Of a stretch of 64,000 nucleotides of DNA, positions 25,500 to 49,253 are shown piece by piece (within the stretch, counting starts at the first letter, position 1; the number at the start of each line of letters is the position of its first letter). The stretch is from assembly GCA_030390025.1 (NCBI GenBank), contig CM059432.1, forward strand, positions 45,944,001-46,008,000, written 5' to 3'. Under the pieces are notes generated by a model, which saw nothing but the letters and a program-made list of their open reading frames with translations, had not been told where the DNA came from and made no database searches. Made by a program: the position numbers and the translations under genes. The DNA is from Squalus acanthias (lineage: Eukaryota).

Positions 25500-26185
25500 T
25501 GTAAGACTTTTGAATCCACCCTTGTCCTTTAATCCGTCCAAAAGTTTCCAAAGTTGAGACCCGTCGAACAGACAACACAAAACACAAGGATTCGAGAATA
25601 ACTTTCTTTTTACTTAAAATCAGCAAGAGGCTACAAGTAAGCTTGCACAAAACTGTTGCATATAATACTCCCGATTAGATCTAAGCATACACAGGTTTTT
25701 TCCCTTACATTAAGATCAAGCGATTACAAGCCAACACTACATACGTACTAACACCAGCGAGTGGTCAGTTCGGCGATGGCTAGATGTACGACTTTAACTG
25801 GCAACTGACCAAGTTGCCTCCGACTGCAGCAGCCCCGAGTGTCTTGAAACAGCATCTATTATACCCTAAAAACCTGGGCAGGCTCATCAATGCGTATGTG
25901 TCCCAAACTGTGTGACAAATGGTCTGCAGTTGTTTTCTTCTTCTAATCAGTGGGCCCCAAGGCCCTTCGCACCAGTTGCCTGAAGATGTTCCTGTCTTTG
26001 TAATGCCAACCATTTGTTCCTGCTCAGGGTCTGTCGCTTCCTTATCTGAGTAACAGCTTTTGTACAATGTTCCCACAGGAACCAACCTCTCAACCTCCCA
26101 TAAGCATGCTGGGATATTAAATTTGGTCAACTTTAAGTTTGGTCAAGTAAAAGCAAATTCTTACAGCAAATGGCTTATTCTTACA
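25500..26185 (-). repeat. 3' LTR of outer ERV (686 bp)
   Basis: Direct repeat of 49254-49939, preceded on the minus strand by purine-rich GAGGGTGGAC. Confidence 0.92.
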
Positions 26186-26840
26186 GTCCACCCTCAAGTG
26201 GCTGTGCACCCGAATCTTCGGGCCACAGGCATTTACAGTTTGTAGGCATTGTCTTCTTCCCTTGGCGTCTTCTCAACAATTTGATCCACTCTCGTTGCTT
26301 GCGTCGCCTGTTAACATGGCAGGTTAGTGTCAATAGATATAACACAATCACCAATTAAATCATGACCAAAACATGGGAAATAATCCTTATCCAAGGATGA
26401 ATCTCGATATTCGTAGCAATATCCCACCAGGACAAATCGTCCCCTTCTTTAGATATTTTTACACGCAGTTCACGTTTTTTCTGGGATAGGGTACAATAGT
26501 GCTTTTGGGACTGACTAACGCGCCTCATTAACTCTAGCAAGTGTTCTGGCAGAGGTGGAATGTCATAGCCGAACTGAGTTACATACTGGTGTAATTGATC
26601 CCTTACCTCATCTTTTACATCAATATCTACTTGCCTATGTGAATAAATACTTAACAAAACCCGTGCCCCAAGTCTTACAGGTTGGACTGGGGTTATACAA
26701 AAGGTTCCTGCCGCAATAGGACAAGTCAGGTTGTTACCGTACTGATACTCCCGTTGCATTATAGTGACACAATATTCACCCTTCTCTCGGTACGCAGATC
26801 GTACAGGGAAATGCTGTCCCGCCATCACTTTCATATTGCA

Positions 26841-27729
26841 AAAATGAGAAGTCGCACAACACCAGGTTATAGTCCAACAGATTTATTTAATTTTACAAGC
26901 TTTCGGAGCAGTTCGCTCCTTCGTCAGGTAAGTTAGCAGTGAGAGAATCTCCCAGAATTCACAATTTAAACACAGGCAAAATATATTCAAATCTTTCCCT
27001 ACATCAAAGAGCACAGCCAAGACAATGAGATGTGTCCCAGGGGGTCCAACGTGTCAAACCACCTGCTGGCTGCATATCCTGTCAATCTGTGTAGGTTCTT
27101 GTGTTAGTCTTTTTAAAAAAAAACACCTGGGAAGACCGGCCATGATGTCAAGTCACGTTCTGTATCGTGACATGAACCCGATATCGCGATTGAGGCCATC
27201 CTCATGAGTGCGTAACTTGGCTATCAGTTTCTGCTCTATGATTTTGCACTGTCGTGTATCTCGAAGGCGAGATACACGACAGCGCAAAATCATAGAGCAG
27301 AAACTGATAGCCAAGTTCCGCACTCATGAGGATGGCCTCAATCGCGATATCGGGTTCATGTCACGATACAGAACGTGACTTGACATCATGGCCGGTCTTC
27401 CCAGGTGTTTTTTTTTAAAAAGACTAACACAAGAACCTACACAGATTGACAGGATATGCAGCCAGCAGGTGGTTTGACACGTTGGACCCCCTGGGACACA
27501 TCTCATTGTCTTGGCTGTGCTCTTTGATGTAGGGAAAGATTTGAATATATTTTGTCTGTGTTTAAATTGTGAATTCTGGGAGATTCTCTCACTGCTAACT
27601 TACCTGACGAAGGAGCGAACTGCTCCGAAAGCTTGTAAAATTAAATAAATCTGTTGGACTATAACCTGGTGTTGTGCGACTTCTCATTTTTGTCCACCCC
27701 AGTCCAACGCCGGCATCTCCACATCATGA
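26841..27729 (+). mobile_element. Penelope-like element, truncated, as a near-perfect inverted repeat
   Basis: 12-bp TSD TTTCATATTGCA. Arms 26839-27263 and 27268-27692. Encodes the GIY-YIG C-terminus RKIIEQKLIAKFRTHEDGLNRDIGFMSRY and carries a hammerhead motif. Confidence 0.85.
27600..27638 (+). ncRNA. Minimal type I hammerhead ribozyme (PLE pLTR); mirror copy on minus strand at ~26893-26931
   Basis: TTAC-CTGACGA-A-GGAGC(GAACT)GCTCC-GAA-AGCT-T-GTAA: conserved core, stem II, palindromic stem III and stem I (TTAC/GTAA). Confidence 0.75.
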
Positions 27730-28510
27730 TTTCATATTGCAGTTCAATTCTATCCCATCCCAATCAAACCCACAGGCAGGGGCTGCATGTTCTACCACGT
27801 CGTAAGGGCAGATGAATGTGTCTCGAGCTTGCACACACTTGGTAAGATTTGGGGCCACCCATGTTGTCCCATCCACTCGGGTCACGTACTTTGGGGGTTC
27901 ATCAAGACATCTCCCTGGTGTACGCCTATGTTCTGCACACGAAACAGAGGGTTTGGGGTCGCCTTTTTGGGCAAAACGGGATAGTATAATACCATCCCTA
28001 ACAGGGTGATGTTGTTCTGTTCCTGCAAATGGGGTTCATGTTTCACCGGGTAGACCTGTACCAACCCCCTGACTTTACACATATTCATGGTAAATTGGTA
28101 AGTGGACATTGCCCTCAGGTGTCGATCAGTCACCCACGAGGGGAGCTTCCCCTCAACAATGCGCTGCAGGTTTTCAGGGGCTTGTTCCACTAACCAAGAT
28201 CCATACATTACACAAACATCATTCCGTGCGGCCTCGTTAGAAGCATTCCGGTCCTCCTTTAGAATTTGGTTTATCTTTTTAGCATGGGATTCTAAATATT
28301 TAACCACATCCTGCAGATGAATGGTCATAATTTGGCTCTCTTCCAATTCCTCCTGTTCTAGACCATTCATGTCATTCAAAATTTTCCGTAAGCGATTTCT
28401 GACCGCTTTTACAGACTGATCTAAGCTAACCAAATCAAGGCTATTAACCATGGCGGTTCCAGTGTTAAAAACAGTGGCTGCATCATTTATCAGACCTCGT
28501 CGCCTTCTGC

Positions 28511-29670
28511 AGGTTATTAAACAAAATTAGGACTCATGGGATTGGGGGTAATATACTAGCATGGATTGAGGATTGGTTAACGGACAAAAAACAGAGAGTA
28601 GGAATAAACGGGTCATTTTCGGGTTGGCAGGCTGTAACTAGTGGGATACCACAAGGATCAGTGCTTGGGCCTCAGCTATTCACAATCTATATCAATGATT
28701 TGGATGAGGGGACCAAATGTAATATATCCAAGTTTGCTGATGATACAAAGCTGGGTAGGAATGTAAGTTGTGAGGAGGATGCAAGGAGGCTTCAAGGGGA
28801 TATAGACAGGCTAAGTGAGTGGGCAAGAACATGGCAAATGGAATATAATGTGGAGAAATATGAAGTTATCCACTTTGGTAGGAAAAATAGAAAAGCAGAG
28901 TATTTTTTAAATGGTGAGAGATTGGGAAATATTGGTGTTCAGATGGATCTGGGTGTCATTGTACACAAATCACTGAAAGTTAACATGCAGATACAGCAAG
29001 TAATTAGGAAAGCAAATGGCATGTTGGCCTTTATTACAAGAGGATTTGAGTATAAGAGTAAAGACATCTTACTGCAATTATATAGGGCCCTGGTGAGACC
29101 ACACCTGGAGTATTGTGTACAGTTTTGGTCTCCTTACCTAAGGAAGGATATACTTGCCATAGAGGGAGTGCAACAAAGGTTCACCAGACTGGTTCCTGAG
29201 ATGGGGGGATTGTCCTACGAGGACAGATTGAGTAGACTAGGCCTATAGTCTCTAGAGTTTACAAGAATGAGAGGTGATCTCATTGAAACATACCAAATTC
29301 TTACAGGGCTTGACAGGGTAGATGCAGGGAGGATATTTCCCTTGGATGGGTGGTCTAGAACCAGGGGTCACAGTCTCAGAATAAGGGGTCGATCATTTAG
29401 GACTGAGATGAGGAGAAATTTCTTCACACAGAGGGTGGTGAACCTTTGGAATTCTCTACCCCAGAGGGCTGTGGAGGCTCAGTTGTTGAGTATATTCAAG
29501 ACAGGAATCGATAGATTTTTGAATATTAAGGGAATCAAGGGATATGGGGATAGTGCAGGAAAGTGGAGATGAGGTAGAAGATCAGCCATGATCTTATTGA
29601 ATGGCGGAGCAGGCTCGAAGGGCCAAATGGCCTACTCCTGCTCCTATTTCTTATGCTCTTATGTTCTTAT
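28511..29670 (+). mobile_element. 5'-truncated CR1 LINE inserted in outer env
   Basis: Same family as 2250-3981 (PQGSVLGP, SKFADDTK) with a (TCTTATG)-type tail. Confidence 0.95.
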
Positions 29671-30804
29671 GATATGGTCCCCTTTAATCCCATAACCGAC
29701 ATCATTTTCGTCAATGAGCTCGGTACTATTTTCCCCAAAGGTATTGTTAAATCCAGTACCCTTGTTAGGCCCCATGTGATATAACAGCTCTAAATCCGAT
29801 TCCGCCAGGTTTGTACTGGCCCTTTCCCAAAATCCCTCTGTTAATTCCCGCACCATTCTCCCATACAACCACACTGTCTCTGACTTGCACCAATTCGGCA
29901 GTCTCACCTTGGTCAGATTCAATATTACTGGCACCACCTCGTGATGCACATCATGGTACAATATCATCCGAGTTGGGATTACCACTAATCCATTTGTCGG
30001 TCCCGGAATCTGTTTAGGGCAGACAACCCGGGTTTCTTGTTATTCCTGCGGTTATGTTTTATTCGTAGGGGAAGGGATTTTCGGGCGAACTTTCACTTTT
30101 AATTCTATGGCCTCTATGGTTCAGTTTACGCATTCCAATACATGATAAGTAGCACACATTTCTTGACATAGCCCTCCCTCCTTTTCATCCAGCATCCATC
30201 GATAAGGGGGGGTAATTTTCTGCACCATACACGAACGCAGGAGAAAGGCTGCAAACCGGGAATTCGAACCTAAAATTGACCCAACTCTTTAGTGGGCCTG
30301 GTCAAGGGTTTACGCATCCATATATACCCTCATGCTCTTGCCACCATCGTGGCCAACATAGCATAGTTTCCCCAATGCTTTCTGATTGAGTCGGACTGCC
30401 GGGGTTCCCCCGAGGGTCCCCTATCTGGTGGTACCTCGTTATGGTACCGGCCTCTGTTCGGAGGAACCATACAAGTGGTTGACTCGCGGTTCCACTCTAG
30501 CACCTTATACATACCCCTTACCCCTTTTCCCTCTTGAATCTTGTGAGTGGTCACCCATATCCTTCCCAAACAACTGGTTTCACATGTACCCATAATGGCC
30601 TGGAGAGTGACCTCCCGAGCGGTGCCGAGGGGTGATGTTGCTGGGACAATAGTAATCTGTTGTAACTCGAACTGTTGGACGCCTCCCCGTGCATTGCTGT
30701 TGCCTCTCAGAGGTGGAGCACTATACCGCACAGCACCCAAAATAATCTCCCTATCTTCCCTTGCCTGGTCCTTGCCTGTAGGGGAAGGGGACAAAAATGA
30801 AGTA

Positions 30805-31490
30805 TTACTCCCGGTCCTGCATCCCTTCACCCCACCATTGGCCGTTCCCGCTTCTACCACTGATATCTACGGGGCGTCCTTTTCTTTTACTATGTCGTGG
30901 TTTAGGAGGGGTCTGTTGGGTTTGTTCGTGGACAGGAGTCGGTTTTGGACCTGGGGCCGGGGGCGTTTCTACGGCTCGCGCATCCTGTCCACTTTCATTC
31001 ATGCCATACTGTACCTGGGGAGGCACCACTTCAGGCGGAGGTGCCTCATTGGGTGGGGGTACCCCATCAGGCACCCCTTCTTCATCATCCCACTGAAAAG
31101 GGCGAATCAGTCGCACCATTCTCATGATTGTGGTTTGTTGTCTTCTTGACCTGCTGGTGGGCTGAAAAAGCTTCACCTGGCTAATATGAAACCACTTGAT
31201 TTTCTTAGGTAACCGAACAGCGTACATGTACACCATGGGACTGGCTTTGTCAACAATACTATACGATCCCTTGTACAGGGTTTCAAAGACTCCCACCCTC
31301 ACATAGTTCCGTACCATCACCTGGCTTCCCACCTCCCACTCCTGGGGTTTACTCGGAGCCAAGTGTAGTCAGTTGCGTTGGTGTGCCTTCCCAATGTTGT
31401 GGGCAGCCCTCAAGTTCAGTTCCTTTAAAGTTCCCAAAGGTAATTCAGGAATTTATCCCTGTTTGAATTCTTGAAATTCACCCATAACCA
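30805..31490 (-). pseudogene. Integrase C-terminal remnant of outer ERV
   Basis: EWEVGSQVMVRNYVRVGVFETLYKGSYSIVDKASPMVY...KWFHISQVKLF, homologous to the inner pol GPY/F-type C-terminus. Confidence 0.85.
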
Positions 31491-33159: not shown

Positions 33160-33609
33160 CTTGAAATTGGTCAGGAATTTTAAAAATACCAATTGTTGAT
33201 GTGATTGCCTCATGTCCAGAACTAAAGGCTTTTACACAATTTACACCAACCAGAATTTCACCATGGCCATAATAAAAGTCTGGTTTTAATAGGTTAATTA
33301 ACCTCAATAACTCCAATTTAATTCAGCCCAGTATCTTAAACTAACTAGTATCACTTGAAAAAGAGGGAGAAGTCACAGCCACACTAACAAAGAAACATTC
33401 ACACATGCTGTGTAAATGTTTAAATTCTTTATCTTCTGGGAACCATGGCAACTGTAACTTCAAGGCTGAAGCTAATCTTTTGAAAAACAAACTGTCTTTT
33501 GTGCATTTCAAAGCTGCATAGATCACAGTCAAAATAAATTCACACCTGCGTCTTTAACTTAAAATGTAATTCAATTTTGGGTGCACAAGCTTAAATTGAA
33601 ATAAACATA

Positions 33610-35226
33610 TGTAAGGGTTTTGACCCGTGTGGCTCTGTGCTCAGCCTGGGGGCTAGTGCGAGGTTAGGCCTTGTTGCCTGTTCTGGTCTCCAGCCAGTCT
33701 GGGAGCACTAGACACCTGTGAGTGGTTCGACCCACTCGCCCTTACGGTTCTGACACTGGACTTAGATGCGAGAGCAATAATGGAGAGAAAACTCAGGTAG
33801 ACCCGGTTGAATGGTACGAAATGGAAAATCTTTATTGCATATTATTCAAGATTACGAAATACATGTCATAAGCACAGATTAATGACAGTACAATCTTACA
33901 CGCAGTTATATAACTAATTTCAGGGAAACGAGGAATGAACGACACATGGTAAATGGGGGCACACATTACAGTTATCCTTAAAACTTAAACCCTCCCCTAT
34001 CAATACCTGCTCTAAACTAGATTTGTAGGATCGAGACTCATGCTCACCACTCGTGATAACTCGGAGAGTTCCGAAAACTCTGATCGGATGTTTTTCACCA
34101 CAGCACCTGATCACCCACGTGTTGATCAGGGGTCTCTGTACCCCACTTGTTTACTCGTTTCTGCTCCGGCTAGCAGGCTGGACCGTCTGCTGTCATGAAG
34201 ATCTGTGTTGTCCTCGGAGTTCCGACTCTACTCAAAAAAGAGTCTTCCTGTGCCCTCGCAGGGATGCGATAAAATTCGAAGAATAGTCTTCCTGGGCAAG
34301 GAAAAAGTGTCTCTTCGACCTACAGGCGCGGTCGGGGCTTACTGACCGTGGCGATACGTATGGTCGTCTTCTTCTCTTCTCATCTCATCTCATCTCATCT
34401 CGGGCCTTCGGTTCCAACACCGTTTACCGACTTCTCGGGATGGTGTGCCCGTTCCAAGGCTTCACAGCCCAGTTCCACACAGATCTTCGCGGCAAGCCAC
34501 GAGGCAGATCCTGGCGGATCGTAAAGTTCAACAGTCTTTAAAGCTGCAAGAGGCAGAGACACGAGGCAAGCGGCAAGAGGCAGGAGAATAAGAGAAAGAT
34601 GGACGGTTGTAGCTTACAGTTATAGTGCAAAAACTCTTCTTTTCCCGCCCAACCTTAATGTCTTTTCTTTTGTTCGGGTTTTGGCGCTCAAATTTCTTGT
34701 ATAGGGTGATCTCCGTTTTAATGGGTTTCGGGGATACTCGTAACTGTCTGAGTACCTGTTAATACTTTTCCCAATGTGTAACCGGTCGGTATTCTCCCTG
34801 GAGGGGTTTTGGGGCTTCCAAATGTTTTCTGTAACTACCCGCTAACGGCTCTCTCATCGTAGAGTCGTGGGGATTTTGCATATTAATGTCTTTGGATGGG
34901 TTCTTGATCACTTGGTACAATAGCCCTTATTCGCACCTGGGAGACCGATTTCAGTATTTATGTGTATACTGCAAACCCATGATGTCTCGTGTATTATCTC
35001 AAATGTGCTGAGTCTTCATCGATCTCGTACAAATGTTTATTGGAACGCCATCTTGTCTGCTTATCGAAAAGTCTAGAATGTTCTGCCACGAGGCGTGGTG
35101 GCCATTTTACAGGCTGCTTGTGTCCACTTTGAAAACCTGACAGCATTCTGCTGAAATAAAGCTGTTTGAACGAAACTATGTGTTTTCTCCTTATTTATAA
35201 AATCGCGATATATTGCGAATTCTACA
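33610..35226 (-). repeat. 3' LTR of inner ERV (1617 bp)
   Basis: Near-identical to 44673-46247 plus 47146-47192. Minus-strand AATAAA near 33835. PPT-like CAACAGGAGGGAC at 35227-35239. Confidence 0.95.
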
Positions 35227-35675
35227 GTCCCTCCTGTTGATGCGAATAACTCCGCTTATCGTATCAAAAATATTGTGGTGAGCAATATTATCTCGATTTC
35301 TCCAGATCCAGAAAATTAATCCCCATAACTTAAACTATCTAGGGTCTTTGCGTCGTCCTTATTTCCCAGGAAAATTACATTCTTATAACACCGCAGGCAT
35401 TATTTGCCTTTAAACTTACACCACTTGTTTTCCTTCCAGGCGTAACCAGGCCGATGCCTCTCGTATCACCTGTATATTCACATTTTTTATTTAGGGAAAG
35501 GAAAAACAAAACAAAACCAAACAATCATATTTAACAACAACACCATCACCAAAATAATCAAAACCAACTCTTAAACATGTCGAGTTCCAAACGTAATTAC
35601 AGTTTCTGAAAAATCACGATCAATTACAACACTTCCGAGGCGCACGTGGCAAACGGGAGTGACGCCATTTTCCGA

Positions 35676-38026
35676 TTACACGGTGCTTTCATCGTGCACG
35701 CGCACGTAACGTTCTCGCCACTCTCCCGTGTTTTCGTTCTTGGTGAGGCGTTTGCCTCTCTTACAATGTACGACCAATAAGTATACCACAATAAACACTT
35801 GGCATACAACTAAAATGTGGGAGGCTATTCTAATCCAGGAAGGCACTTCAATGTTGGTGAACAGATTCCACCACGGTGGAATTACTATGTCCAGAATGTC
35901 TGTCCCTATTTCGACAGTTTTCTGCTCTAGTGTGTAAAAATGTTTTTGTGACACCGCGACGGCTTTTAAAAGCTTGGTGAGGTGTTCAGGGAGAGGGGGA
36001 ATGAGGTATCCGAAATGCGCGACGAATCGCTGCAGGTCGGTGAAGTTCTCTTTTACGGTGAGATGAACCGTGGATGGTTCAGGGATTGGGCAATTCGCTG
36101 TTGTGCTACTTGAACTTCCGCCCTGGGTTTGAAACAGAAACTGCTGTCACTCACCGGACACCGGCTACGGTTTCCATGCTGGTAGTGTTGCGCTGCAGTG
36201 GTAACACAATATGTTCCACCCCCGATGTATGCTACCTGCGGAGGCACATGATCTTGTGCCATGGCCTCCATGGTGCAATTCATGGACTTGGCGCCAGCCG
36301 TTCTGAACCCGCACTGTGGTGTTAAAAAGGCATTCAAGTGCTGGGGACACAGTATTATGTGTGCTCCCCTGCCACGACAACCAGAGAGATCTGTACCTGT
36401 CATCGTTTGCTCCCAGCGGATGACGTAGGGTGGAACCGCTGCATAGCGAATGTGGGCTCCCCCCTGAATGACACCAATGTTCTCTACCCGATACACCGGG
36501 GCGGGCATTGCTGTGTCGCCCAAAACCGGCATACGTAGTACTATACCCATGATAGTATGGTTTGATCGTCCACAGTCCACGGGGACTGGGTATGCTTCTG
36601 AAGCTAGCCTGAGCTGGCACGGGCTTAATGCGTTCTGAAAAGGGTGGAGCGCCCGCAGGTGTTTGTTACTTATCCAGGACGGGACCAAACCTTGTTTTAA
36701 ATCCTCCAAATTACTGCGGCCCTCGCCCAGTAACCACGCCCCGTAAAGCACGCACACCTCGTTCTGCGCAGCTTGATCGGATGCATTCCGATCTTCCCTA
36801 ATCAGGGCATTTACCGTTCTCGCGTGTTTCTCTAGTTCAGCTATTATTTCTTTTAAATGGAGAGTCATGGCTTGGTCCTCGTGTAAACCCGACCCAACCA
36901 CCTTATTTTCATCTGTGAGAATGTCTTTTAATTGCGTTTTTAAGCCATTAATCTGGGTCTGCAGCTCCACGCTGTCTAGAGCGTTGACCACAGATGTACC
37001 TGTGTTGAAAGCAGTGAACGCGTCGTTCACAACACCCCTTCTTTGCCTCCCCACCTGATCAAAGACTTCATGTGGTGCGGTGTACAAACTTGTTTTATCA
37101 ATTTCCGCGAAATTGAACTCATAGAATTGTCTGAACATCTTGGTCAACAGGACCTGATACAACTGTTCCGTCTTTTTGGGGCACCACTCTGGTAACCGCA
37201 CCTCGGTGAGATTTAAAATCACCGAGGCCACCGCGTAATGTACCCCCTGAAATAGTATCTGGTCTGTGGGGACCAGTACCAAACCATTCCCGGGTCCCTT
37301 ACTGGTTTTAGGGCACCCTTCTTCCTTAGCTAGAACCACCGGAATCGTGAGCGGGGCTTTGCGTGGGCGCGTAATGAGTTCAGTGGCATTTACTGGGATC
37401 GGGGAGAATGGGGCCCCGCACCCCCTGGTGCTCCCATCCCACCTCATCCCCTGTCCGTTATCCTGCCATTGATTAATGAAAAATATGGAGATGCCTTTTG
37501 GGCAAACGTACTTTGACCCCCACATACATACATAGATTCCCTCATCCGGTTCCCACCATTTGTCCCAACAGACTCTCACTTGTCCGTTTGTCCCCGTAAT
37601 TGTCCGATGGGTATTATTACCCAGTCGTTCCCACTCGACCGAAGAGTTCCTCGTGTTTTTGCTCAGCTTTCGCAGCCACCACCATCGGCTCAATGGGACA
37701 TTCCCACTACAAGTCAAACAAATCCGTTTGCTGACGGTGACGCTGATCCTGGGTGCGATGATCCTTACTTTGGGGCACAGTAAAGAAGTCTCTTGGTAGG
37801 CAAACCCCGATGTGCTGGAATACTCCGTTGAGTTCGTTCCCAGCCATCCTGGCCACCTTCCCTTGTGGAAATAGGTGGTGGTCTCCTCAGCCTCCCGTCT
37901 TCCGGTCCCATCCACCGCGATGGGGGCCGTGTCCCCGGAGCATCCAAACACCACGACATCCTTGGTGCGTCCTCGATAGGCCAATCCGCATCCGATTGCC
38001 GCGAGCAATACTAGAATTCGTTCCAT
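35676..38026 (-). CDS. env: Env glycoprotein (signal peptide, putative Ig-like domain, furin site, F-like class I fusion ectodomain, TM), with a 1-nt frameshift at ~36089
   Basis: Signal peptide MERILVLLAAIGCGLA, then RQRR|GVVNDAFTAFNTGTSVVNALD, a heptad region and a Cys-rich domain. The TM segment (WIRIASHILVVCQVFIVVYLLVV) is in the adjacent frame. Confidence 0.85.
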
Positions 38027-38365
38027 CCTTCCTTGGTTCCTGTGATCAGATAGAATGAGGTAGCCAGCCTCGCAAGAGTCTCTGGCTTTTGTGAAGGGTG
38101 AGCGGGTCCCCTGCCCTCGCCTCACGTAAACTTCAATGTTCGCTGGATAAACTTTAACTAAACCTATCTCTAAAACTCCCATCATTTACTTCCTTTTATT
38201 ATTAAACAAAATTTTAACTACCAACTTAAACCGATTTAAAACTATAACCTCATAACCTTATCTAAAACTATAAACTTATACTTAACCTTAACCTTGAACT
38301 ATAAACTTAGAAACTTATCCTAAACTTATTACTGTACAGCGCCGCCCGTTCCCAGGGCGGCCCCT

Positions 38366-41300
38366 TTAAATTCTGAAAAGGCTGCCGCGAGCTCTTCCCG
38401 ACGGTGGGAGGGCATTGACCCCTCCCTTTGATCTGCCGCAGCCTGTTGCTGCTGCGCTGGGACTGGGCTCTTCCTGGGCTGCCTTAACCTTGAGTCTACG
38501 CCTTGGGACAGTCTGGGGACTTGACCATATCTTCCTGGGCTGGGGTATCCGACCTGACCTACGGAGAGTTACCGGGGGCAGGAATCCCAGGACCGACGGA
38601 CCGGGTTCCGAGACTTCCACTGTGGCGACCTGTGGTCCCTCCACAGTCGCTGGCTCCGCCTCTCCTGGCTCCGCCTCCCTGAACTCGGGACCTGCAGCTT
38701 GTGGCACCGCCCTACTCGGCCCAGCAGGCGGCCCTTCACTCGCAGTCCCTACCTCCCCCGAGGGCAGGACGTTCAAGACGGGCGGCTCGGGCTCTGAGGC
38801 TTCCACCGTCACGCCCTGTGGTCCCACAGCGGCTGGCTCCGCCTCCCCTGGCTCCTCCCCCCTGCGTTCGGGACCTGCAGCTTCGGTTTCCACCCTGTGT
38901 GGATCTCTATCTGCAGCCCCTGTCCCCCCTATACCTGAATCGGGGGCGACCCTTTCGTCCTCCGATTCCAGCTCTTCCTCGTCACTACCTTCACTATCCT
39001 CATCTTCGTCGAGCTCCTCGAACCCTCCCTCATCTGACTCCCAACCCCACAAAAATGTCTCACAATTTTCCAGGGTGTCCCCTTCCCTGATGCAAGCTGC
39101 TTTGCCTGCCTGTGTGCCCTGTGGTCCTACCTGGGGCTGCGAGTCCCCACTCGCAGGTTTTGCCCCTGTGGTTGGCCCTTGTGCACCTGGCTTGTACAGT
39201 TTGCACTGGTTTACGTGGAACCACTTAGTGCGCCGAGGTACTTTTACGGCGTATACCATGGGACTCGCTTTATCTACAATGTTGTAGGGTCCCATATACA
39301 GTGGTTCCAGACTCCCTACTCTGGCATAGTTTCTGACCATGACCTGGTCTCCTACTTCCCACTCCCGCGTTTTGCGGGGTTCCTGCAACAGGCGATTGCC
39401 CTGATGCTGCCTTCCCATGTTCCCAGCCGCCTGCTCATAAACCTGCTTCAGGCGCTCCAAGAGGGTCTGGGCGAACTTGTCCCTGCTTATCTCTTGGAGC
39501 TGACCCTCAGTGAGCACCGGCGCTAGCACATGGGTGGGGGTTCGCATGATCCTCCCAGTCATCACTTCGTGCGGGGAATACCCCGTACTTTTCGACTGAC
39601 TGGCCCGGACCCCCATGAGGACTAAAGGCAGAACCTCCGCCCATTTTTGGGGCGAGTTCATAGTCTCTTTCCTCAATTTCTCCTTCAGGGTCCGGTTCAT
39701 GCGTTCAACAATCCCGGATGACTGGGGATTGTGTGCTACGTGCCATTTCCCTTCAATGCCCAAAAGCATGAGGGTGTTCTGCATCACCTGGCCGGTAAAA
39801 TGACTCCCTTGGTCTGACTCCACAAAACGGGGGAGTCCCCACCGCGAGAACACTTCCCGGACCAAGATTTTTGCAGTACCCAGTGCCGTAGCTGTTCGAC
39901 AGGGGAAGGCTTCCACCCATTTGGAAAACACATCCACCAAGACGAGGCAGTATTTATAGCCTCCCTGGGTGGTGGGCAGGGGCCCTATATAGTCGATCTG
40001 TATCGACTGCCATGGTCCCTCTACCCTTCTGACGTGCCCCATGGGCACTTTCCTTTTCTGGGGGTCTGGGTTGTTTGCAGCGCACACGAGACAGCTTGCA
40101 CAGAACTCGCGGACCTGTTCCCTGAGCCCCGGCCACCATCCCGCTTGCTCTACCCGTTGCCAGGTAACCTCGGGCCCGGGGTGCCCTGCCCCTGGTCCCT
40201 CGTGAGCCAACTGGAGGAATTCCCTCCTGTGCTGCTGCGGCACAACCCACTGCTCTTCGCGGAACAGCATGCCTTCCTTAACTGAGAGGGTTGCCGTACT
40301 GTACGGACCCTCTACCTGCTTCCCCTCAGCAAGGGTTTTGAGGACTGCTTTTAGGGCGGGATCCTGGTTCTGGACGGTCTTAAGGTCTAGGGGCAATGCT
40401 ACCCTGGTGTTCCCGGGATTCCCGTCCCTGCCTTGGATCGCTGCCATGGGTCTGGGCCCATAGGGGTCCCAGAAAATGCCGTTGCGGGCACCTTCCCTGG
40501 CTAGCGCATCCGCCTGCTGGTTGCCCTCCCCACGGGGCTCTGTGGAGGAGTGAGCCTTCACCTTATGGATGAAAATCTCCCCTTCCTCCCCTACTGCTGC
40601 TAGGATCTTTTCCAGCAAGGGCTTCACCGTTAAAGGTCGCCCGTCCGCGGAGGTGTATCCACGGCGGGACCAAATGGCCAAGTATTTCGTACACGAATTG
40701 CATGTGAACATACTGTCCGAGCAAATCGTGTATGGGGTTGGGAAAATTTCTGGGTGGGTAACGACGTACACCACTGCAGACAGCTCAGCCTGCTGCGCGC
40801 TCATGGTGCTGGGGAGCTTAATCGCCAGGGCAAGGTTTGCCGCAGGGTCATAAACTCCACACCCTGTGAGTCGTTCGCCAGCAGATACTGTGCTGGAACC
40901 ATCAACATAAATCTCGCGCCCAGTGGGATGTATCCCGGCCCGCAAACCTATGTTGACTTCCCACACCCCTTCCACCGAACACCGGTGGGCTGTACCGGGG
41001 TATACCAAATTGGCCGCAAGCCTGGGCTCGCAAAGACCTTTAACTCGAAGATCCATCTGGGAAAGAAGAAGGGTCCAGCGCGCAATACGCACGCTGCTTA
41101 CGGTCCCATCTTTAATCCTCCCATCTAGAAGCATCTTAGTTGGTGTGTGATGGGTGAGGAGAGTGATGGGAGAGAGCCCTGTGAAGATCGCTGATCTTTT
41201 CACAGCCCAATGCGTGGCTAAAAGGTGCCTTTCGCAATTGGAGAAACTTCTCTCCACATCCGTTAACACCCTGGACGAATAGACAACCGGCCTCAGCTTG

Positions 41301-42862
41301 CCGTGACGCTCTTGGAGCAGCACAGCGCTTAAGCTGTCCCCGCTGGCAGCTACCTCCAGGAAAAACTCCTTCACCCCATCTATGGCCCCTAAAGCTGGCG
41401 CGGTCTGCAGATCCCTTTTTAACTTCTCGAAGGCTGCTTGGCAGCCCTCGTCCCAAGACCACTCCACTCCCTTATGGAGGAGTCGGAGCAGCGGCGCCGC
41501 TGTGGCCGCATAGTCTTCGATAAAATCCCTGCAGTAACCGGTCAGTCCCAAAAAGGACCTCACACCCCTTATGGTGTTGGGAATCGGTAACTCTTGCACC
41601 GACTCCCTCCTAGCTTTATCTATGGCTCTTTCCCCAGCGCGAATGGTCAGCCCCAGGAATTTTACTTCCTCCTGACCAATACGTGCTTTCTTAGGGTTCA
41701 CTTTAAAACCCTTTCTCGCTAGCCGCTCCAATAACTCGGCCAGCAGTGGTCCATGCTCCTCCCTTGAGTCCGTAAATAGGAGCAAATCATCCACGTACTG
41801 CACTATCTGATTGGGCTGACTAAACTCCTTTAAACTTCCTGCCATACACTGTTGGAAAATACTGGGGCTGTTGTGGAAACCCTGTGGCAGACAGTTCCAT
41901 GTGTACTGTTGTTCTTTGAAAGTAAAGGCAAACTTGTACTGGTCCTCTCGCCGCAGTGGGATGGACCAAAAACCGTTCGAGATATCCAGCACCGTGAACG
42001 TGGTCGCGGACGCTGGGATACTCCCTATTAGGTCAGCAACTGCTGCTACCGTGGGCGCGCAGGCGGGAATGTTACTGTTAAGGACTCTGTAGTCCACCGT
42101 GGCCCTCCACGAATTATCCGGCTTCCTAACCGGCCATAATGGGGAGTTCACGTGTGTGGCTATCGGCCTCAACACGCCCTGCTGCACCAAGGAGGACATT
42201 GCTGTCTCCATGTCGGGTTCTGCTTCTTTGGGGAAGTTATACTGTTTTTGGGGTCGGGTCATGGGGTCCCCATCTACGCTGACCTCAAACCCGGCAACCC
42301 TCCCACAATCGTGCTTGTGGGTTGCAAACGCGTGCATATTATCTGACACGTACGTTTGCATGTCCGTTGGGACATCCGCGACCATAAGCCCGAGGTCGTA
42401 GCCTCCGGATGGCTTCATGGTACACAGGACCCCTGTTTCTTCCTCCCCCGGAATTACCACTACCTCGCCGTCTCCACCCTTAGCCCCCCAGAGACAGTGA
42501 TTCCTGAGGTCCACGAGGATCCCGTGCCCTGATAGGAGATCGGACCCGAGGATACCTCTCCCACCCCCCTCATGCCATTTCATCAGTATGCACTTCCACT
42601 TGATGTGGAGTGCTCCTAAACGAATGGATAGCGGAAGGGAGAACGCGCCAGCCTGTTCTTTTCCCGTGAACCCCGCTAATGTGAATGGGACCTTGGTAGA
42701 TAGCGGTGAGTCAAAAGGGCTATCTGTATGAATCACAGTGCAAGAAGCTCCCGTGTCCAACAAATAACTACCCCTTTGTTTCTCTACCTCCATTTCCACC
42801 AGGGGTCGCTTCCACGCATCATAGCTGAGCGGACACAGGTAGACGGGCTGCGCGAGCTCTAG
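38366..42862 (-). CDS. pol: Pol polyprotein: protease, RT, tether (degenerate RNase H), RNase H, integrase, acidic/Pro-rich tail
   Basis: LLDTGAS; LPQGFHNSP/QYVDDLL; AASGDSLSAVLLQ tether; IYVDGSS...AQQAELSAV...CSDS...KVKAH...GNQQADALA; HHCC, IDYIGPLP, SDQGSHF, VERMNRTLK. Open and in frame with gag. Confidence 0.95.
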   Translation of the reverse strand, partial: LELAQPVYLCPLSYDAWKRPLVEMEVEKQRGSYLLDTGASCTVIHTDSPFDSPLSTKVPFTLAGFTGKEQAGAFSLPLSIRLGALHIKWKCILMKWHEGGGRGILGSDLLSGHGILVDLRNHCLWGAKGGDGEVVVIPGEEETGVLCTMKPSGGYDLGLMVADVPTDMQTYVSDNMHAFATHKHDCGRVAGFEVSVDGDPMTRPQKQYNFPKEAEPDMETAMSSLVQQGVLRPIATHVNSPLWPVRKPDNSWRATVDYRVLNSNIPACAPTVAAVADLIGSIPASATTFTVLDISNGFWSIPLRREDQYKFAFTFKEQQYTWNCLPQGFHNSPSIFQQCMAGSLKEFSQPNQIVQYVDDLLLFTDSREEHGPLLAELLERLARKGFKVNPKKARIGQEEVKFLGLTIRAGERAIDKARRESVQELPIPNTIRGVRSFLGLTGYCRDFIEDYAATAAPLLRLLHKGVEWSWDEGCQAAFEKLKRDLQTAPALGAIDGVKEFFLEVAASGDSLSAVLLQERHGKLRPVVYSSRVLTDVERSFSNCERHLLATHWAVKRSAIFTGLSPITLLTHHTPTKMLLDGRIKDGTVSSVRIARWTLLLSQMDLRVKGLCEPRLAANLVYPGTAHRCSVEGVWEVNIGLRAGIHPTGREIYVDGSSTVSAGERLTGCGVYDPAANLALAIKLPSTMSAQQAELSAVVYVVTHPEIFPTPYTICSDSMFTCNSCTKYLAIWSRRGYTSADGRPLTVKPLLEKILAAVGEEGEIFIHKVKAHSSTEPRGEGNQQADALAREGARNGIFWDPYGPRPMAAIQGRDGNPGNTRVALPLDLKTVQNQDPALKAVLKTLAEGKQVEGPYSTATLSVKEGMLFREEQWVVPQQHRREFLQLAHEGPGAGHPGPEVTWQRVEQAGWWPGLREQVREFCASCLVCAANNPDPQKRKVPMGHVRRVEGPWQSIQIDYIGPLPTTQGGYKYCLVLVDVFSKWVEAFPCRTATALGTAKILVREVFSRWGLPRFVESDQGSHFTGQVMQNTLMLLGIEGKWHVAHNPQSSGIVERMNRTLKEKLRKETMNSPQKWAEVLPLVLMGVRASQSKSTGYSPHEVMTGRIMRTPTHVLAPVLTEGQLQEISRDKFAQTLLERLKQVYEQAAGNMGRQHQGNRLLQEPRKTREWEVGDQVMVRNYARVGSLEPLYMGPYNIVDKASPMVYAVKVPRRTKWFHVNQCKLYKPGAQGPTTGAKPASGDSQPQVGPQGTQAGKAACIREGDTLENCETFLWGWESDEGGFEELDEDEDSEGSDEEELESEDERVAPDSGIGGTGAADRDPHRVETEAAGPERRGEEPGEAEPAAVGPQGVTVEASEPEPPVLNVLPSGEVGTASEGPPAGPSRAVPQAAGPEFREAEPGEAEPATVEGPQVATVEVSEPGPSVLGFLPPVTLRRSGRIPQPRKIWSSPQTVPRRRLKVKAAQEEPSPSAAATGCGRSKGGVNALPPSGRARGSLFRI

Positions 42863-44668
42863 TCATTGGGTACTATTAGACGGGCCTGTGGCACCTGCGG
42901 GGCCAGTAGCAACCGCCACCTTTCCATGCGCACTCATGAGGTTACGCATGGCTCCCAACACTGTTTCGATCGCGTCGGGAGGGATGGGTGCACTAGCTTC
43001 CCTATCAGAGACAGGCATCTGGGCTCGGGCTGCGGGATTTTTATCCCTGGAATCCTTCCAAGGGTTCCTGCAGTTCTTGCGCCAGTGCCCTGTCTTCCCA
43101 CACCCGTAACAAGCATTACTGGCCTGCGGGGCGCGGTTACCCTCCTGATGCCACTCCTTTTGAGCCGGGGCTGCGGGTCGTGCCTCATGCACCTTTCCCT
43201 TAAGGGGACGTGCTCCCATACTTCTGGTATTACGGTACCCCACCGTGAGTCGATTTAGGACCGACTCCTCTGTAGTGGCGGGGTCAGTGGGATCAAACCA
43301 CGCTTTTGCCTGCTCCCTGACGGCTGGCAAACTGTTGGTTACTATACACCTGAGCCAATGAGTTAAACCGGTGTCTGCCACATCGGCGCGCTCTGGCGCA
43401 CCTGGGCAGCTACGCTGGTATACTGGCCACAGCCTGTCGGCGAAAACCTTCGGGGGTTCTCCCTCCATCTGCACTGTCTGTCCCAGTCTAACAAACGGAC
43501 CTTCATCGTCCGCTCCCAATACTTCTAGGACCTCATTTCTTAGTGCCCCATAGGCCTTAGTTCCCCTCTTGCTCTCGTCTGAGAGACACTGAAGGATCGA
43601 ACTACCTAATGAGAATAACAGCATCTTTGCTGTTTCCCCATCGTCGCAGCCGTTAATGGCTGCGGTTTGCTCTATTTCCCTAAAATGTACGGAAGGGTCG
43701 TCTGACTCGGCCAGCTTCGGTACGTGACTGATCATAATCCTCAGCTGGTGTGAGCTGTGAGGCAACACAAGCTGGTTGAGGAGATCTCCTTGTTCCCCAC
43801 CGTCTCTGTTCGGGCCCCTTTTGATACTCGTGACCGGACACAACGGTCCCGGTTCCACTTCTACCTCGGTGGGCTCTTTCGTTACTTCTACCACTTTCTT
43901 CCTTACCCAGGTTTCCGAATAGCTGGGTGGCGCGGAGGGCGTAGTGGCTAATACTTCCTCTGCTTTGTTTGGTGGGAATTTCTGAAACTCCTCATCCACT
44001 AGCGGCTGGTGTGCTGACGGACTGATAAGGCACACCATACCGTGTGCTTTGTTCACGGCCCTTTTAAGGTGTTCTATCTCCTTTTGGCAGACGCTATGAT
44101 CGGCCCCCTGAAATTTATCCTCAAGGGCCATCTTATATGCCGCCCTAACCCCCGTTAAGCTCTCTTCCTGGGCTTTTATTTGGGCAGCTTGACGGGCACA
44201 TCGTTCCTTTAGTCTGCCCTCACTTAACTTTGCCTCAGTGACCTGGCACTCGAGGTAATCTATTTTTGCTTTATGGTGGCTGGTGACTACCTGGCGTTCT
44301 TGGTGCAACGCATTTAAATTCGTAATGAGCAACTGCCCCCCAGTGACCTTCTCGTCCATTTCCACCTCTAAATGCCTGATCCGAGCTGTTTGTGCTGTAA
44401 TGACCTGGTCCGAAATTTGGACTTGTCTTTTATAGCACATCAGCCAGACCGCTTTCTCCACTGTCTTTTTGTGTTCCTTGCTATCTGTCCACCTCTCGGC
44501 TGCCTCTAGTGGACACTTATCCACCAGCAGGTCACTTATCCATTTCTTAGTTAAATTTACTTTTCCGAACACATAGTCTGCTATTCTCTCTTCCATGACA
44601 TTTCGTCCAATCATACCAAAGTCTAACACATTACCCTCTCGCTGCCAGTGTCCTGCCGCAGTCGCCAT
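42863..44668 (-). CDS. gag: Gag polyprotein (coiled-coil N-terminus, PSAPPSY late motif, capsid-like region, single CCHC knuckle)
   Basis: Open 601-aa ORF directly after the 5' LTR with CYGCGKTGHWRKNC. The true start may be a downstream Met. Confidence 0.9.
   Translation of the reverse strand: MATAAGHWQREGNVLDFGMIGRNVMEERIADYVFGKVNLTKKWISDLLVDKCPLEAAERWTDSKEHKKTVEKAVWLMCYKRQVQISDQVITAQTARIRHLEVEMDEKVTGGQLLITNLNALHQERQVVTSHHKAKIDYLECQVTEAKLSEGRLKERCARQAAQIKAQEESLTGVRAAYKMALEDKFQGADHSVCQKEIEHLKRAVNKAHGMVCLISPSAHQPLVDEEFQKFPPNKAEEVLATTPSAPPSYSETWVRKKVVEVTKEPTEVEVEPGPLCPVTSIKRGPNRDGGEQGDLLNQLVLPHSSHQLRIMISHVPKLAESDDPSVHFREIEQTAAINGCDDGETAKMLLFSLGSSILQCLSDESKRGTKAYGALRNEVLEVLGADDEGPFVRLGQTVQMEGEPPKVFADRLWPVYQRSCPGAPERADVADTGLTHWLRCIVTNSLPAVREQAKAWFDPTDPATTEESVLNRLTVGYRNTRSMGARPLKGKVHEARPAAPAQKEWHQEGNRAPQASNACYGCGKTGHWRKNCRNPWKDSRDKNPAARAQMPVSDREASAPIPPDAIETVLGAMRNLMSAHGKVAVATGPAGATGPSNSTQ
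44650..44667 (-). promoter_or_regulatory. Primer binding site of inner ERV (tRNA-Ser-like, uncertain)
   Basis: TGGCGACTGCGGCAGGAC, 5 nt after the LTR CA. Partial match to the tRNA-Ser 3' complement TGGCGTAGTCGGCAGGAT. Confidence 0.55.
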
Positions 44669-44672
44669 TTTC

Positions 44673-47192
44673 TGTAAGGGTTTTGACCCGTGTGGCTCTG
44701 TGCTCAGCCTGGGGGCTAGTGCGAGGTTAGGCCTTGTTGCCTGTTCTGGTCTCCAGCCAGTCTGGGAGCACTAGACACCTGTGAGTGGTTCGACCCACTC
44801 ACCCTTACGGTTCTGACACTGGACTTAGATGCGAGAGCAATAATGGAGAGAAAACTCAGGTAGACCCGGTTGAATGGTACGAAATGGAAAATCTTTATTG
44901 CATATTATTCAAGATTACGAAATACATGTCATAAGCACAGATTAATGACAGTACAATCTTACACACAGTTATGTAACTAATTTCAGGGAAACGAGGAACG
45001 AACGACACATCGTAAATGGGGGCACACATTACAGTTATCCTTAAAACTTAAACCCTCCCCTATCAATACCTGCTCTAAACTAGATTTGTAGGATCGAGAC
45101 TCATGCTCACCACTCGTGATAACTCGGAGAGTTCCGAAAACTCTGATCGGATGTTTTTCACCGCAGCACCTGATCACCCATGTGTTGATCAGGGGTCTCT
45201 GTACCCCACTTGTTTACTCGTTTCTGCTCCGGCTAGCAGGCTGGACCGTCTGCTGTCATGAAGATCTGTGTTGTCCTCGGAGTTCCGACTCTACTCAAAA
45301 AAGAGTCTTCCTGTGCCCTCGCAGGGATGCGATAAAATTCGAAGAATAGTCTTCCTGGGCAAGGAAAAAGTGTCTCTTCGACCTACAGGCGCGGTCGGGG
45401 CTTACTGACCGTGGCGATACGTATGGTCATCTTCTTCTCTTCTCATCTCATCTCATCTCATCTCATCTCGGGCCTTCGGTTCCAACACCGTTTACCGACT
45501 TCTCGGGATGGTGTGCCCGTTCCAAGGCTTCACAGCCCAGTTCCACACAGATCTTCGCGGCAAGCCACGAGGCAGATCCTGGCGGATCGTAAAGTTCAAC
45601 AGTCTTTAAAGCTGCAAGAGGCAGAGACACGAGGCAAGCGGCAAGAGGCAGGAGAATAAGAGAAAGATGGACGGTTGTAGCTTACAGTTATAGTGCAAAA
45701 ACTCTTCTTTTCCCGCCCAACCTTAATGTCTTTTCTTTTGTTAGGGTTTTGGCGCTCAAATTTCTTGTATAGGGTGATCTCCGTTTTAATGGGTTTCGGG
45801 GATACTCGTAACTGTCTGAGTACCTGTTAATACTTTTCCCAATGTGTAACCAGTCGGTATTCTCCCTGGAGGGGTTTTGGGGCTTCCAAATGTTTTCTGT
45901 AACTACCCGCTAACGGCTCTCTCATCGTAGAGTCGTGGGGATTTTGCATATTAATGTCTTTGGATGGGTTCTTGATCACTTGGTACAATAGCCCTTATTC
46001 GCACCTGGGAGACCGATTTCAGTATTTATGTGTATACTGCAAACCCATGATGTCTCGTGTATTATCTCAAATGTGCTGAGTCTTCATCGATCTCGTACAA
46101 ATGTTTATTGGAACGCCATCTTGTCTGCTTATCGAAAAGTCTAGAATGTTCTGCCACGAGGCGTGGCGGCCATTTTACAGGCTGCTTGTGTCCACTTTGA
46201 AAACCTGACAGCATTCTGCTGAAATAAAGCTGTTTGAACGAAACTATGGGGTAAAAATTCAGTTGGTTGCGCCTCCCGTTAGCGCCTTAAGAGGGCGCTA
46301 ATGGGGTGCAAAGCCGCTAACGCCCGGGCGCAGCGATGTTTGCGCCGCTCGGGAACTTAACTTGACATTGTGCGGCGGCGCTAAAACTTACCGCTGCGAC
46401 CACCTGCGCGCGCAGATTGTGACGTCATTCCATGGTGCAACGCCCTTGGGGCGCCCCGGAGTGGAAATTGAGTGGCGCCCCCTGCCTTACCGCCTGGCGC
46501 TTCCAATGACCAGAAGACTGGAACGCTATCAATCGCTGTGGGGCTGGGGGGGGGCGCTATTTAAAGGGGGCCTCTTCCTGTCTTTTATTGTTGGTGGCAT
46601 TTTTGAACTACGCATTCTGAGAGAGAGAGGGAGAGACTTCTGGAGAGATTCAACGTTGTGTGAAGGAGTTTTTGGGTACTGAGCAGCACTTTGCAGGTTC
46701 ATTTTGATTTGCCATTCCTTGTATCGATTTAGCAGAGACTGTGGGAGCTGCACTCTGAGCTCTTTGCCTGGTACTCTCCATTGTTCTTTCCAGCACATTT
46801 GATGTGCAAGTCTCTCCAGGCCGAGATTCAAGGCAGCAATGAACAGGATGTGGATGGAAAGCAAGATTAACCATCCCCTTTAAGAACTGGCCCGTGCCAT
46901 TGTGTGTGTGTTCCATTGCTGACTGACATTACATGAGCTTCGCCAGCGCTCCGAGTTAGCGCCTCACTGCTCGGCCTTTGCGCCTTAAGAGAGGTGTGCA
47001 GCGCCTGCTTTAGCGCTCCACTCACCTCCCGGGGTGGTAAAAGTGAAGTTTCCAGTCAGTGCCGATAATTAGCGCCAGGCGCTAATATTTGCGTCCAGAC
47101 GATATTTGCGCCCCAAATGGGGCGCGACCTAATTTCTACCCCTATGTGTTTTCTCCTTATTTATAAAATCGCGATATATTGCGAATTCTACA
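44673..47192 (-). repeat. 5' LTR of inner ERV, interrupted by a Harbinger MITE
   Basis: Direct repeat of 33610-35226 once 46248-47142 and one TAT are removed. Confidence 0.95.
46248..47142. mobile_element. Harbinger MITE (895 bp)
   Basis: TIRs GGGGTAAAAATT / AATTTCTACCCC and TSD TAT. Ends are shared with 13844-17671. Near-identical reverse complement of 57436-58328. Confidence 0.92.
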
Positions 47193-47669: not shown

Positions 47670-49214
47670 TTAAATTGTCGTCTCAGCAGCTTTTTCTGAC
47701 CCCCTCCCCTTTCTGGTCCCTTCCTGTTGCCATTTTCGAGAGGTCCCACCTCTCATTTCACATACCTTGCCTCTCGGCTTATTCATTACTCCAGTATTCT
47801 TTTTATCTGCCTGATGTGCCTGGAAGTGCAGGGTCATTTTCCTCACTGCCCTAGCTTCGGTATTTCTGTCACCCGCATCCTCTGGCTCATAATCAGACAT
47901 CGCAGCTTGTAGATAGGGCAGACTGTGAGAAATCAAAGTGCGCAACCCGTGGTTATGCGGGGCTCCCACTAGTTGTCCTCTATCTCCCAGCACCCCTCCC
48001 ATGGCTGCTAGATATGTGGGCCACAGCCTGTCTGCAAATGCCACCGGAGTCTCATTTGGACCCTGCTCCACATCTGCTATAGCTTTAAAAGGATCCCCTT
48101 TTCCCTGTTCCATTACCTGGGCAATTTTCACCTTCAACCCCTCATAATCGCCTCCCGCTCTTTTGCTTTCTGGAGGGAATCCGGCAAAAACTCCGGGGCT
48201 CAGGGTGAATAGCAGTAAGTTCTTCCTCTCCTCCTCAGCAAGGCCGTTTAAGGCGGCCATTTGTTCCACCTCTAAATAGTGCCCTTGGGGGTCCCCTCCC
48301 TGCTCCAACTTTTTCATATCACTGGAAATTTTCCTTAATTCCTCAGTATTATACGGGACCACAAATTACCGATCTAGCAGCCCTAAGGCTTCTGCCTCCG
48401 CACCCTCGCCCGGCGCCTGCTTTTGCCACATCGGGGCCATAGGTGGGGGCCAAATTCCCTCCGGTGGGCCATAGCCTGGTCCCTGCTCTAACTCCGCGTC
48501 ACCTTCCTCACCTTCACTATCCCTTTCTCCATCGTCCAGCCCTTCTCCTCCTGACGAAGGAGTCATAGCGCACACAATACCCCTCTGAACCCGTAACCTA
48601 TCCACCAACTCCTTAATCTTCCTTTTGCACTCGGTGTGATCCCCTCGAGCACCCCTATCTTCAGAAACCTGTTTCTGAACAACCCTATATACAGCTTTCA
48701 GGTCCTTATTAGCTTTCCGTGCCTGTTCTGCCCGATGTCTATGATTGAATAGTCCTTTTGACAAGGCATCACACTGATCCTGATTATTAATGCCCTGGCA
48801 CTCGAGATATTGCTCTTTATTACACCACCTTTCCTTTTCCTTCTCAAATTTTTCATCGAGCTTTCTCTTCCTTTCCCTCACTTCCTCTACCTCCTTCTTT
48901 CTATTCTCCGTTTCTTCCTCTAATTCCTTCAGAAGTTGGTTTACCACTGCTTCTCTGTCACTGGCTTTTTCTGCCATATCCTCTATTTCCTTTCGTAACT
49001 TAATCTTTTCACACTCATCGTTCTGAACCTGCCTTTGATAGGCTAACAACCAGACGGCTTTTATTATCTGCTGCCGACATGTGGACCCTTGTGTCCATTA
49101 TTCGGCCTCATAAACCAGATCATCACCATCAATAATGATCCGTATCCACCTCATCCAGAGAGGTAACTTCCCTGCCACATACTTAATGACTAACTCATCC
49201 ATTGTCTTTGCCAT
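47670..49214 (-). pseudogene. gag of outer ERV (premature stops, truncated before the zinc knuckle)
   Basis: Homologous to the inner gag (ETPVAFADRLWP vs EPPKVFADRLWP; DHTECKRKI vs DHSVCQKEI). In-frame TAA at 48366. Confidence 0.85.
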
Positions 49215-49248: not shown

Positions 49249-49253
49249 AAATC

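Follow-up and report, generated by a model that had tools for sequence, protein, structure and literature searches.

We describe an endogenous retrovirus (ERV) of the cartilaginous fish Squalus acanthias whose envelope protein (Env) carries, ahead of a likely F-like (class Ib) fusion core, a domain that almost certainly adopts an immunoglobulin (Ig)-superfamily fold. Because relatives in the same genome have either this or unrelated heads at that spot, the head is likely to be an exchangeable receptor-gripping part, and we consider it moderately probable that the Ig domain forms the central part of a head built into the fusion protein for receptor binding. The element lies in a stretch of 64,000 nucleotides, here called the window (assembly GCA_030390025.1, contig CM059432.1, positions 45,944,001 to 46,008,000 of the forward strand), and its features are listed in Table 1.

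The element is nested inside an older, outer ERV. Its LTRs share 99.0% identity over 1576 bases, and a 4-base target duplication flanks it. The family is young and abundant: all 150 members scored, out of 6,004 candidates, match Env over its first 209 residues at 96-100%. The gag and pol genes share one frame with a single TGA between them (42863-42865), so that expression by read-through is likely, and in pol a tether-type RNase H-like domain is followed by a second RNase H and the integrase (Pfam). The env open frame runs for 657 codons from 38026; this copy is broken near its 3' end, as the transmembrane tail sits in another frame. No tRNA genes were found in the 64-kb window. The LTRs of the inner element are unusually long (about 1.6 kb), and the 895-base repeat within the 5' LTR (46248-47142) has further copies in the window at 55924-56777 and 57436-58328, with 83-98% identity. 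The tail of pol (38366-39190) extends about 270 codons beyond the integrase and is acidic, rich in Pro, Glu and Gly and internally repeated; the outer element has a similar but shorter tail (30805-31368). Two insertions interrupt the outer env: one is LINE-like and bears an RT, and the other contains an internal duplication (window 28511-29663 and 26880-27720).

Table 1. Features of the inner and outer elements and of related loci (window positions, unless a locus name precedes them)
Feature	Position	Strand	Remarks
Inner LTR element	33609-47192	minus	carries the env under study
3' LTR, inner element	33609..35226	minus	
5' LTR, inner element	44673..47192	minus	split by 895-base insertion at 46248-47142
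gag, inner element	42863..44770	minus	one CCHC knuckle
pol, inner element	38366..42862	minus	protease, RT, tether, RNase H, integrase, long low-complexity tail (Pfam)
Env start and hydrophobic N terminus	37967..38026	minus	ATG at 38026; signal peptide judged by eye
N-terminal sub-domain ahead of Ig, residues 21-77	37796..37966	minus	conserved in alignment A1; low model confidence
Predicted Ig-superfamily V/I-set-like domain, residues 84-186	37469..37777	minus	AlphaFold, fold searches, profile search
B-strand Cys106	37709..37711	minus	unchanged in 28/28 copies covering the domain
C-strand Trp run, residues 115-117	37676-37678 (Trp117)	minus	
F-strand motif D-x-G-x-Y-x-C, residues 161-167	37526..37546	minus	
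Additional pair of cysteines: Cys103 in strand B, Cys153 in strand E	37568..37720	minus	family signature
Trp/Cys segment and Pro/Thr-rich linker, residues 191-235	37322..37456	minus	links head to core
Likely F-like (class Ib) fusion core, residues 236 to ~650	36077..37321	minus	profile A5 match to gp130
Predicted R-Q-R-R cleavage site, residues 327-330	37037-37048	minus	
Env C-terminal part with transmembrane stretch	35676..36146	minus	different frame from rest of env
Outer (older) ERV LTR-like pair	25499-26189 and 49253-49943		92.7% identity
Outer ERV gag remnant	47697-49205		
Outer ERV env pieces	26286-30532		
Homologous, broken Ig segment, outer ERV env	30308..30532	minus	
N-terminal env cassettes	L080:2120-2908, L119:640-1060, L076:1112-1555		~790, 420 and 440 bases; Cys-rich
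Sub-module behind Ig, outer family, two forms	L022:1990-2222 vs L033:1260-1502 and L036:1957-2129		

An initial annotation, made from the letters of the window, had placed an Ig domain at 37510..37765, between the signal peptide and the fusion core, on the basis of a B-strand Cys, a C-strand Trp and a D-x-G-x-Y-x-C motif at Ig-like spacing. These residues are present in the env frame and the domain does lie between the hydrophobic N terminus and the core; the place was right, but the folded domain is slightly wider (residues ~84-186, 37469-37777). Cys106 and Cys167 are 61 residues apart, within the range of 55-75 taken for Ig domains, and would form the canonical disulfide. The Cys-Trp-Cys and D-x-G-x-Y-x-C signature is kept across alignment A3, and only 10 of 20,000 shuffles of Env produce such a pattern. 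Cys103 and Cys153, nearly invariant across the three virus families of this alignment, may form a second, outward-facing disulfide between strands B and E.

Structure prediction and fold searches argue strongly for an Ig fold. The AlphaFold input for residues 78-190 was built from alignment A3 (23 rows of natural stop-free segments from three families); the best of five models has a pLDDT of 71.7 and a pTM of 0.67, while the set ranges down to 50.8, with two models below 55. In the best model, nine strands in Ig order, with a short helix ahead of strand F, form a predicted two-sheet beta-sandwich (strands A', B, C, C', D, E, F and G). When this model was compared with 48,161 chains by VIA-align, TREM-1 scored highest, with Z 10.6 and 2.0 A for 91 aligned residues, and 238 chains reached Z >= 8. 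The ranks below it, no more than about 1 Z lower and 8-18% identical, are held by TREM2, NKp44, antibody V domains, NCAM2, contactin and titin. Chains of the V-set (TREM, antibodies) tie within 1 Z with those of the I-set (NCAM, titin), and identity to all solved fold matches is 8-20%. Foldseek returned at least 500 PDB matches at E <= 0.001, those listed being antibody and other Ig-superfamily chains. The prediction of a beta-sandwich with Ig-superfamily matches agrees with what the annotation had proposed.

Searches with sequence profiles gave a more mixed picture. Profile A4, made of 23 viral domain-only segments with no host sequence, retrieved 260 PDB sequences at E <= 1, and the best 60 of the 260 are all Ig-superfamily by name; its lowest E-values are sums over repeated domains, the best single-domain matches being an I-set domain (E 5.9e-4) and CD8 alpha (1.2e-3). 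Eight of the nine PDB matches of profile A2 are Ig chains (E 0.07-0.6), whereas profile A3 gave one PDB match, not an Ig chain, probably because full-length rows diluted this profile of 371 positions. All seven PDB matches of the Ig domain alone at E <= 10 are Ig chains, none significant (E 0.6-1.4), and the whole Env gave two unrelated matches at that threshold. Ig families in Pfam stayed below the cut-off of 30 bits: Ig_3 reaches 13 bits (E 0.15) in this Env, single-sequence E-values for this family are 0.15-0.94, and two relatives score better but still below the cut-off (E 0.0085; E 0.0027, 18.6 bits). The expectation of Ig-family profile hits was therefore borne out by the virus-only profile but not by Pfam. 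The Pfam scores, a pLDDT of 38 for an earlier model of 209 residues built from 9 alignment rows (residues 21-77 and 191-229 being of low confidence) and Atlas scores of 0.89 or lower would be in keeping with a chance pattern in a Trp/Cys-rich segment whose fold is not Ig. However, the later AlphaFold model, Foldseek, VIA-align, profile A4 and the shuffle rate all speak against chance, which we regard as very improbable. As far as modelling can tell, residues 84-186 almost certainly fold as a V/I-set-like Ig-superfamily domain.

This domain is an old viral module and not a recent capture, because the outer ERV and further families carry a homologous domain. The initial annotation had held that the outer env is similar only downstream of the Ig region; this proved wrong, as tblastn finds a diverged and broken copy at 30308-30532 (E 5.8e-4), for which a profile of inner-type domains only gives E 3.9e-8. 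An uninterrupted copy of the outer family aligns to the inner domain at 30% over 74 residues (pairwise E 8e-10). With the database size set to 1000, the inner-type profile gave E-values of 5e-12 to 3e-8 for uninterrupted segments of the outer family and of about 1e-6 for a third family (11 of 11 segments). Homologues occur at 20-31% identity in two other families of the same genome, and skate, sawshark and whale shark have proteins that match at 49-71%. Weaker versions are present in more distant families of the genome and in P0016, a related Env from bamboo shark (UniRef A0A401SHR0) that is automatically named 'Ig-like domain-containing protein', a label that does not recognise a viral Env. 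In seven P0016-type segments the score with the I/II profile was reached by 0-2 of 200 shuffles (2 of 200 for P0016 itself), and segments of L044, L059, L093, P0031 and P0038 scored no better than chance with this profile. The frog Env (P0031) has an Ig-like segment at the equivalent place, which we treat as a lead only.

The word 'captured' in the annotation is therefore plausible for the deep past but does not hold for recent times, since several virus families share the domain and no donor could be traced. A search for host look-alikes returned five proteins among 7,991 scored candidates, two viral and three multi-Ig, none of them a close donor (the named non-viral match is an insect lachesin-like protein); this is weak evidence that a host donor is absent. 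That this element alone recently acquired a host Ig exon might be suggested by a fold and a C-W-C core typical of animal proteins. It is nonetheless highly unlikely in the face of the homologues in the outer and third families and in skate, sawshark and whale shark proteins, the frog lead and the failure to find a close donor.

The remainder of the Env is likely to be an F-like (class Ib) fusion protein, judged by its profile matches and motifs. Profile A5, built from 26 cores, has its best PDB matches in 8rm1 (E 3.3e-4) and 8rm0 (E 2.8e-3), both named envelope glycoprotein gp130, over one Cys-rich stretch of about 180 positions; we take these entries to be foamy-virus Env. Paramyxovirus and pneumovirus F proteins are absent from the A5 matches at E <= 1, and Pfam PF00523 has no match in this Env (Fusion_gly E 0.66 in one relative). 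The R-Q-R-R at residues 327-330 is followed by a hydrophobic stretch, which fits class Ib.

The virus itself resembles the lokiretroviruses (lokiorterviruses). Wang and Han describe for these, in the available part of PMC7947760, a gag-pol-env plan between LTRs, with protease, RT, tether, RNase H and integrase in pol, and an Env with a signal peptide, an R-x-x-R site, a coiled coil and a transmembrane stretch; the same genome plan, with a tether and second RNase H in pol, and Env parts of the same kinds are found here. The Loki Env core also opens with a P-G-P/G-x-V motif similar to that of the core here, and Loki Env has been linked to F at E 2e-7 (PMC7947760, same part). Unlike the Loki Envs, however, the Env here has about 215 extra N-terminal residues including the Ig domain: of the 23 Loki Env starts given in the accessible material of that study, 22 run from signal peptide to core and the other lacks its N terminus. 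Nor does the word immunoglobulin appear in the portions of its text and supplement available. Shark foamy-like ERVs, known from pol alone, offer an alternative label for the family (PMC5512871, available part). The pol scores are about equal for Ty3 (251 bits), gammaretroviral (242) and foamy (213) enzymes, which would fit a basal position without giving a placement.

Other Env families of the same genome combine the same core with different Cys-rich N-terminal parts followed by a Pro/Thr-rich hinge. In L080, L119 and L076, the DNA is 92-95% identical on both sides of the env front end but encloses three non-homologous cassettes (Table 1). Three cassettes in a near-identical backbone are a direct sign of head exchange, and a comparison of related Env N termini had been suggested at the outset; near-identical flanks with unrelated heads are what it yielded. 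The pol plan is the same in all 12 loci that keep an RT or tether match, RNase H and integrase (of 20 upstream loci), the others being partly deleted. Among L102, L108, L109, L110, L111 and L078 there are five or more other types of non-Ig module at the N terminus, each with a Pro/Thr-rich hinge; non-Ig heads gave no convincing Pfam match. The Ig domain itself was not seen to be swapped in the inner family (28 of 29 copies carry it) or in the outer family. The head is dispensable for the fusion fold, as it is missing from those 22 Loki Envs and from P0039, P0043 and P0044; headless Envs include those of coelacanth and eel and of one further record. The proposal that the N terminus is a swappable module was first argued from the outer env, an argument that was mistaken, but cassette exchange in sister families and the headless Envs support the claim itself.

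In a tree of 39 fusion cores (1 of 28 loci was dropped for a match under 110 residues), the 22 Ig-labelled rows need five changes. A single clade of Ig-headed cores was rejected (21 vs 18 rows, p-AU 0.0009, with the group fixed partly after the tree was seen and no mixture model applied). In an integrase tree of 16 rows, from which 5 of 20 loci were dropped, a branch with 100/99 support splits eight Ig-headed rows and one other from seven non-Ig rows. The simplest reading is one old gain of the Ig head followed by replacement and recombination, although the trees lack a sound root and do not separate gain from loss. P0038 and P0039 have sister cores (98/83 support), the former beginning with a segment that resembles a V-set domain (Pfam V-set E 0.045, no PDB match) and the latter without a head; P0038 may, by its sequence, represent a second, independent Ig gain.

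How might such a head work? The Env would be made as one precursor and cut at R-Q-R-R, with the head remaining on the N-terminal subunit, hung from the core by the Pro/Thr-rich linker. By attaching to a protein or glycan on the cell surface, the head would draw the trimer to the cell and help to release the fusion peptide. It would stand in for the separate attachment protein of paramyxoviruses, as built-in heads do in coronavirus spike and foamy-virus Env, and exchange by recombination of the cassette that follows pol and precedes the fusion core would alter receptor use. We favour a receptor-binding head because its site matches the position of class Ib modules, a hinge lies behind it, relatives can do without it and the slot has been swapped. 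Headless Loki Envs must bind cells in some other way, and a head is therefore not required for entry in the group.

Selection on the domain was assessed in 29 copies picked by their core, 28 of which cover and carry it. Shared variants in the domain are 10 synonymous and 3 non-synonymous, against 9 and 26 for private variants (Fisher p 0.002); the Ig domain is thus under purifying selection in the inner family, and there is no sign in it of the fast change often seen at receptor-binding surfaces. It is possible, if unlikely, that the Ig domain is a scaffold or spacer that folds, stabilises and shields the prefusion trimer, with residues 21-77 and 191-215 doing the binding. Strong purifying selection, the conservation of these flanking sub-domains (alignment A1) and two glycan sequons within the domain (residues 127 and 137) would suit such a role. 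So would the outer family, in which the Ig domain stays (86-88% shared) while L022 and L033/L036 show no homology to each other in the 150-230 bases that follow it; as this variation sits behind the Ig, the binding surface could be in the flanking sub-domains. On the other hand, in P0016-type, P0031 and P0038 Envs the core follows almost directly after the Ig-like segment, and in other families small Cys-rich domains replace whole heads, which fits a binding role for the slot overall.

Our annotation had also raised the idea of an immune decoy. Such a decoy or modulator would mimic a host Ig-superfamily receptor or ligand, in the manner of the Ig proteins of poxviruses, herpesviruses and adenoviruses. 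The structural neighbours include TREM, NKp44, BTLA and CD8, and 16 viral proteins were among the Foldseek matches at E <= 0.001, those named coming from these same three virus groups. Yet adhesion and muscle Ig domains score within 1 Z of the immune receptors, all at 8-18% identity, and the candidates scored included no host look-alike. The domain forms part of a fusion protein and is not the product of a separate accessory gene, and unrelated folds fill the same slot in sister families. A decoy is accordingly doubtful, and the position of the domain and the pattern of exchange lead us to favour receptor binding.

Several known systems offer parallels. F-type proteins either work with a separate attachment protein or have a binding module of their own, and the available part of PMC11468914 treats the gain of such modules as an open question. 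According to the same part, foamy-virus Env is built on the F scaffold too, to which binding modules can be joined N-terminally (coronavirus spike) or between the subunits (foamy Env). Like foamy Env, the Env here would combine an F-like scaffold with a built-in binding module and no separate attachment protein, but the foamy receptor-binding domain (RBD) is a 330-residue novel fold before the furin site, whereas the module here is N-terminal and Ig-superfamily-like (PMC11468914, as above). Domain II of F and foamy Env is also an Ig fold, but belongs to the core and differs from the N-terminal domain here (same part of PMC11468914). Coronavirus spike likewise has a class Ib scaffold extended by binding modules at its N-terminal end (ibid., available part); the virus and the module folds are unrelated, so that spike serves as an analogy alone. 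The Env probably functions as a class Ib fusion protein to which a binding module has been joined. RBDs of gamma-type Envs are said to resemble a V-type Ig fold (PMC7683403, available part), which provides a precedent for Ig-like binding heads on retroviral Envs, and the hinge behind the head resembles the proline-rich region of gamma-type Env (PMC9967133, likewise in part). Gamma-type Env is, however, of a different fusion class and its RBDs are absent from the fold matches listed; the domain here, in contrast to those RBDs, keeps the Ig-superfamily Cys-Trp-Cys core and D-x-G-x-Y-x-C.

We tentatively suggest, as a serious possibility, that cartilaginous fishes host a large, undescribed loki-like radiation with an F-type Env and a plug-in head, Ig or unrelated Cys-rich, exchanged as a cassette at fixed borders. 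Such an Env would parallel, among retroviruses, the design of coronavirus spike, and the radiation would offer a natural series on how an F protein without a head acquires a receptor-binding part and then alters it: one genome holds the Ig head and unrelated heads on near-identical backbones, and relatives elsewhere are headless. It would also extend loki-like viruses to cartilaginous fishes, in six genomes of which the available part of PMC7947760 reports no Loki element. No description of the Ig-head/F-like Env layout was found in the open-access literature searched, including the accessible parts of PMC9040795, PMC12440569, PMC10435555, PMC11089739, PMC13709493, PMC5512871, PMC4422223 and an errantivirus preprint. 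Because the Ig domain is small and soluble, the question of its receptor could be approached without virus. The nearest database proteins to this Env are skate and sawshark gene models. Three database models (P0009, P0006 and P0033) fuse Env pieces to zinc-finger, Niban-like or cadherin sequences and are probably artefacts of gene prediction over ERV copies. A further retroelement, with RT and a weak Pao peptidase match (Pfam), lies at 53808-55942 of the window.
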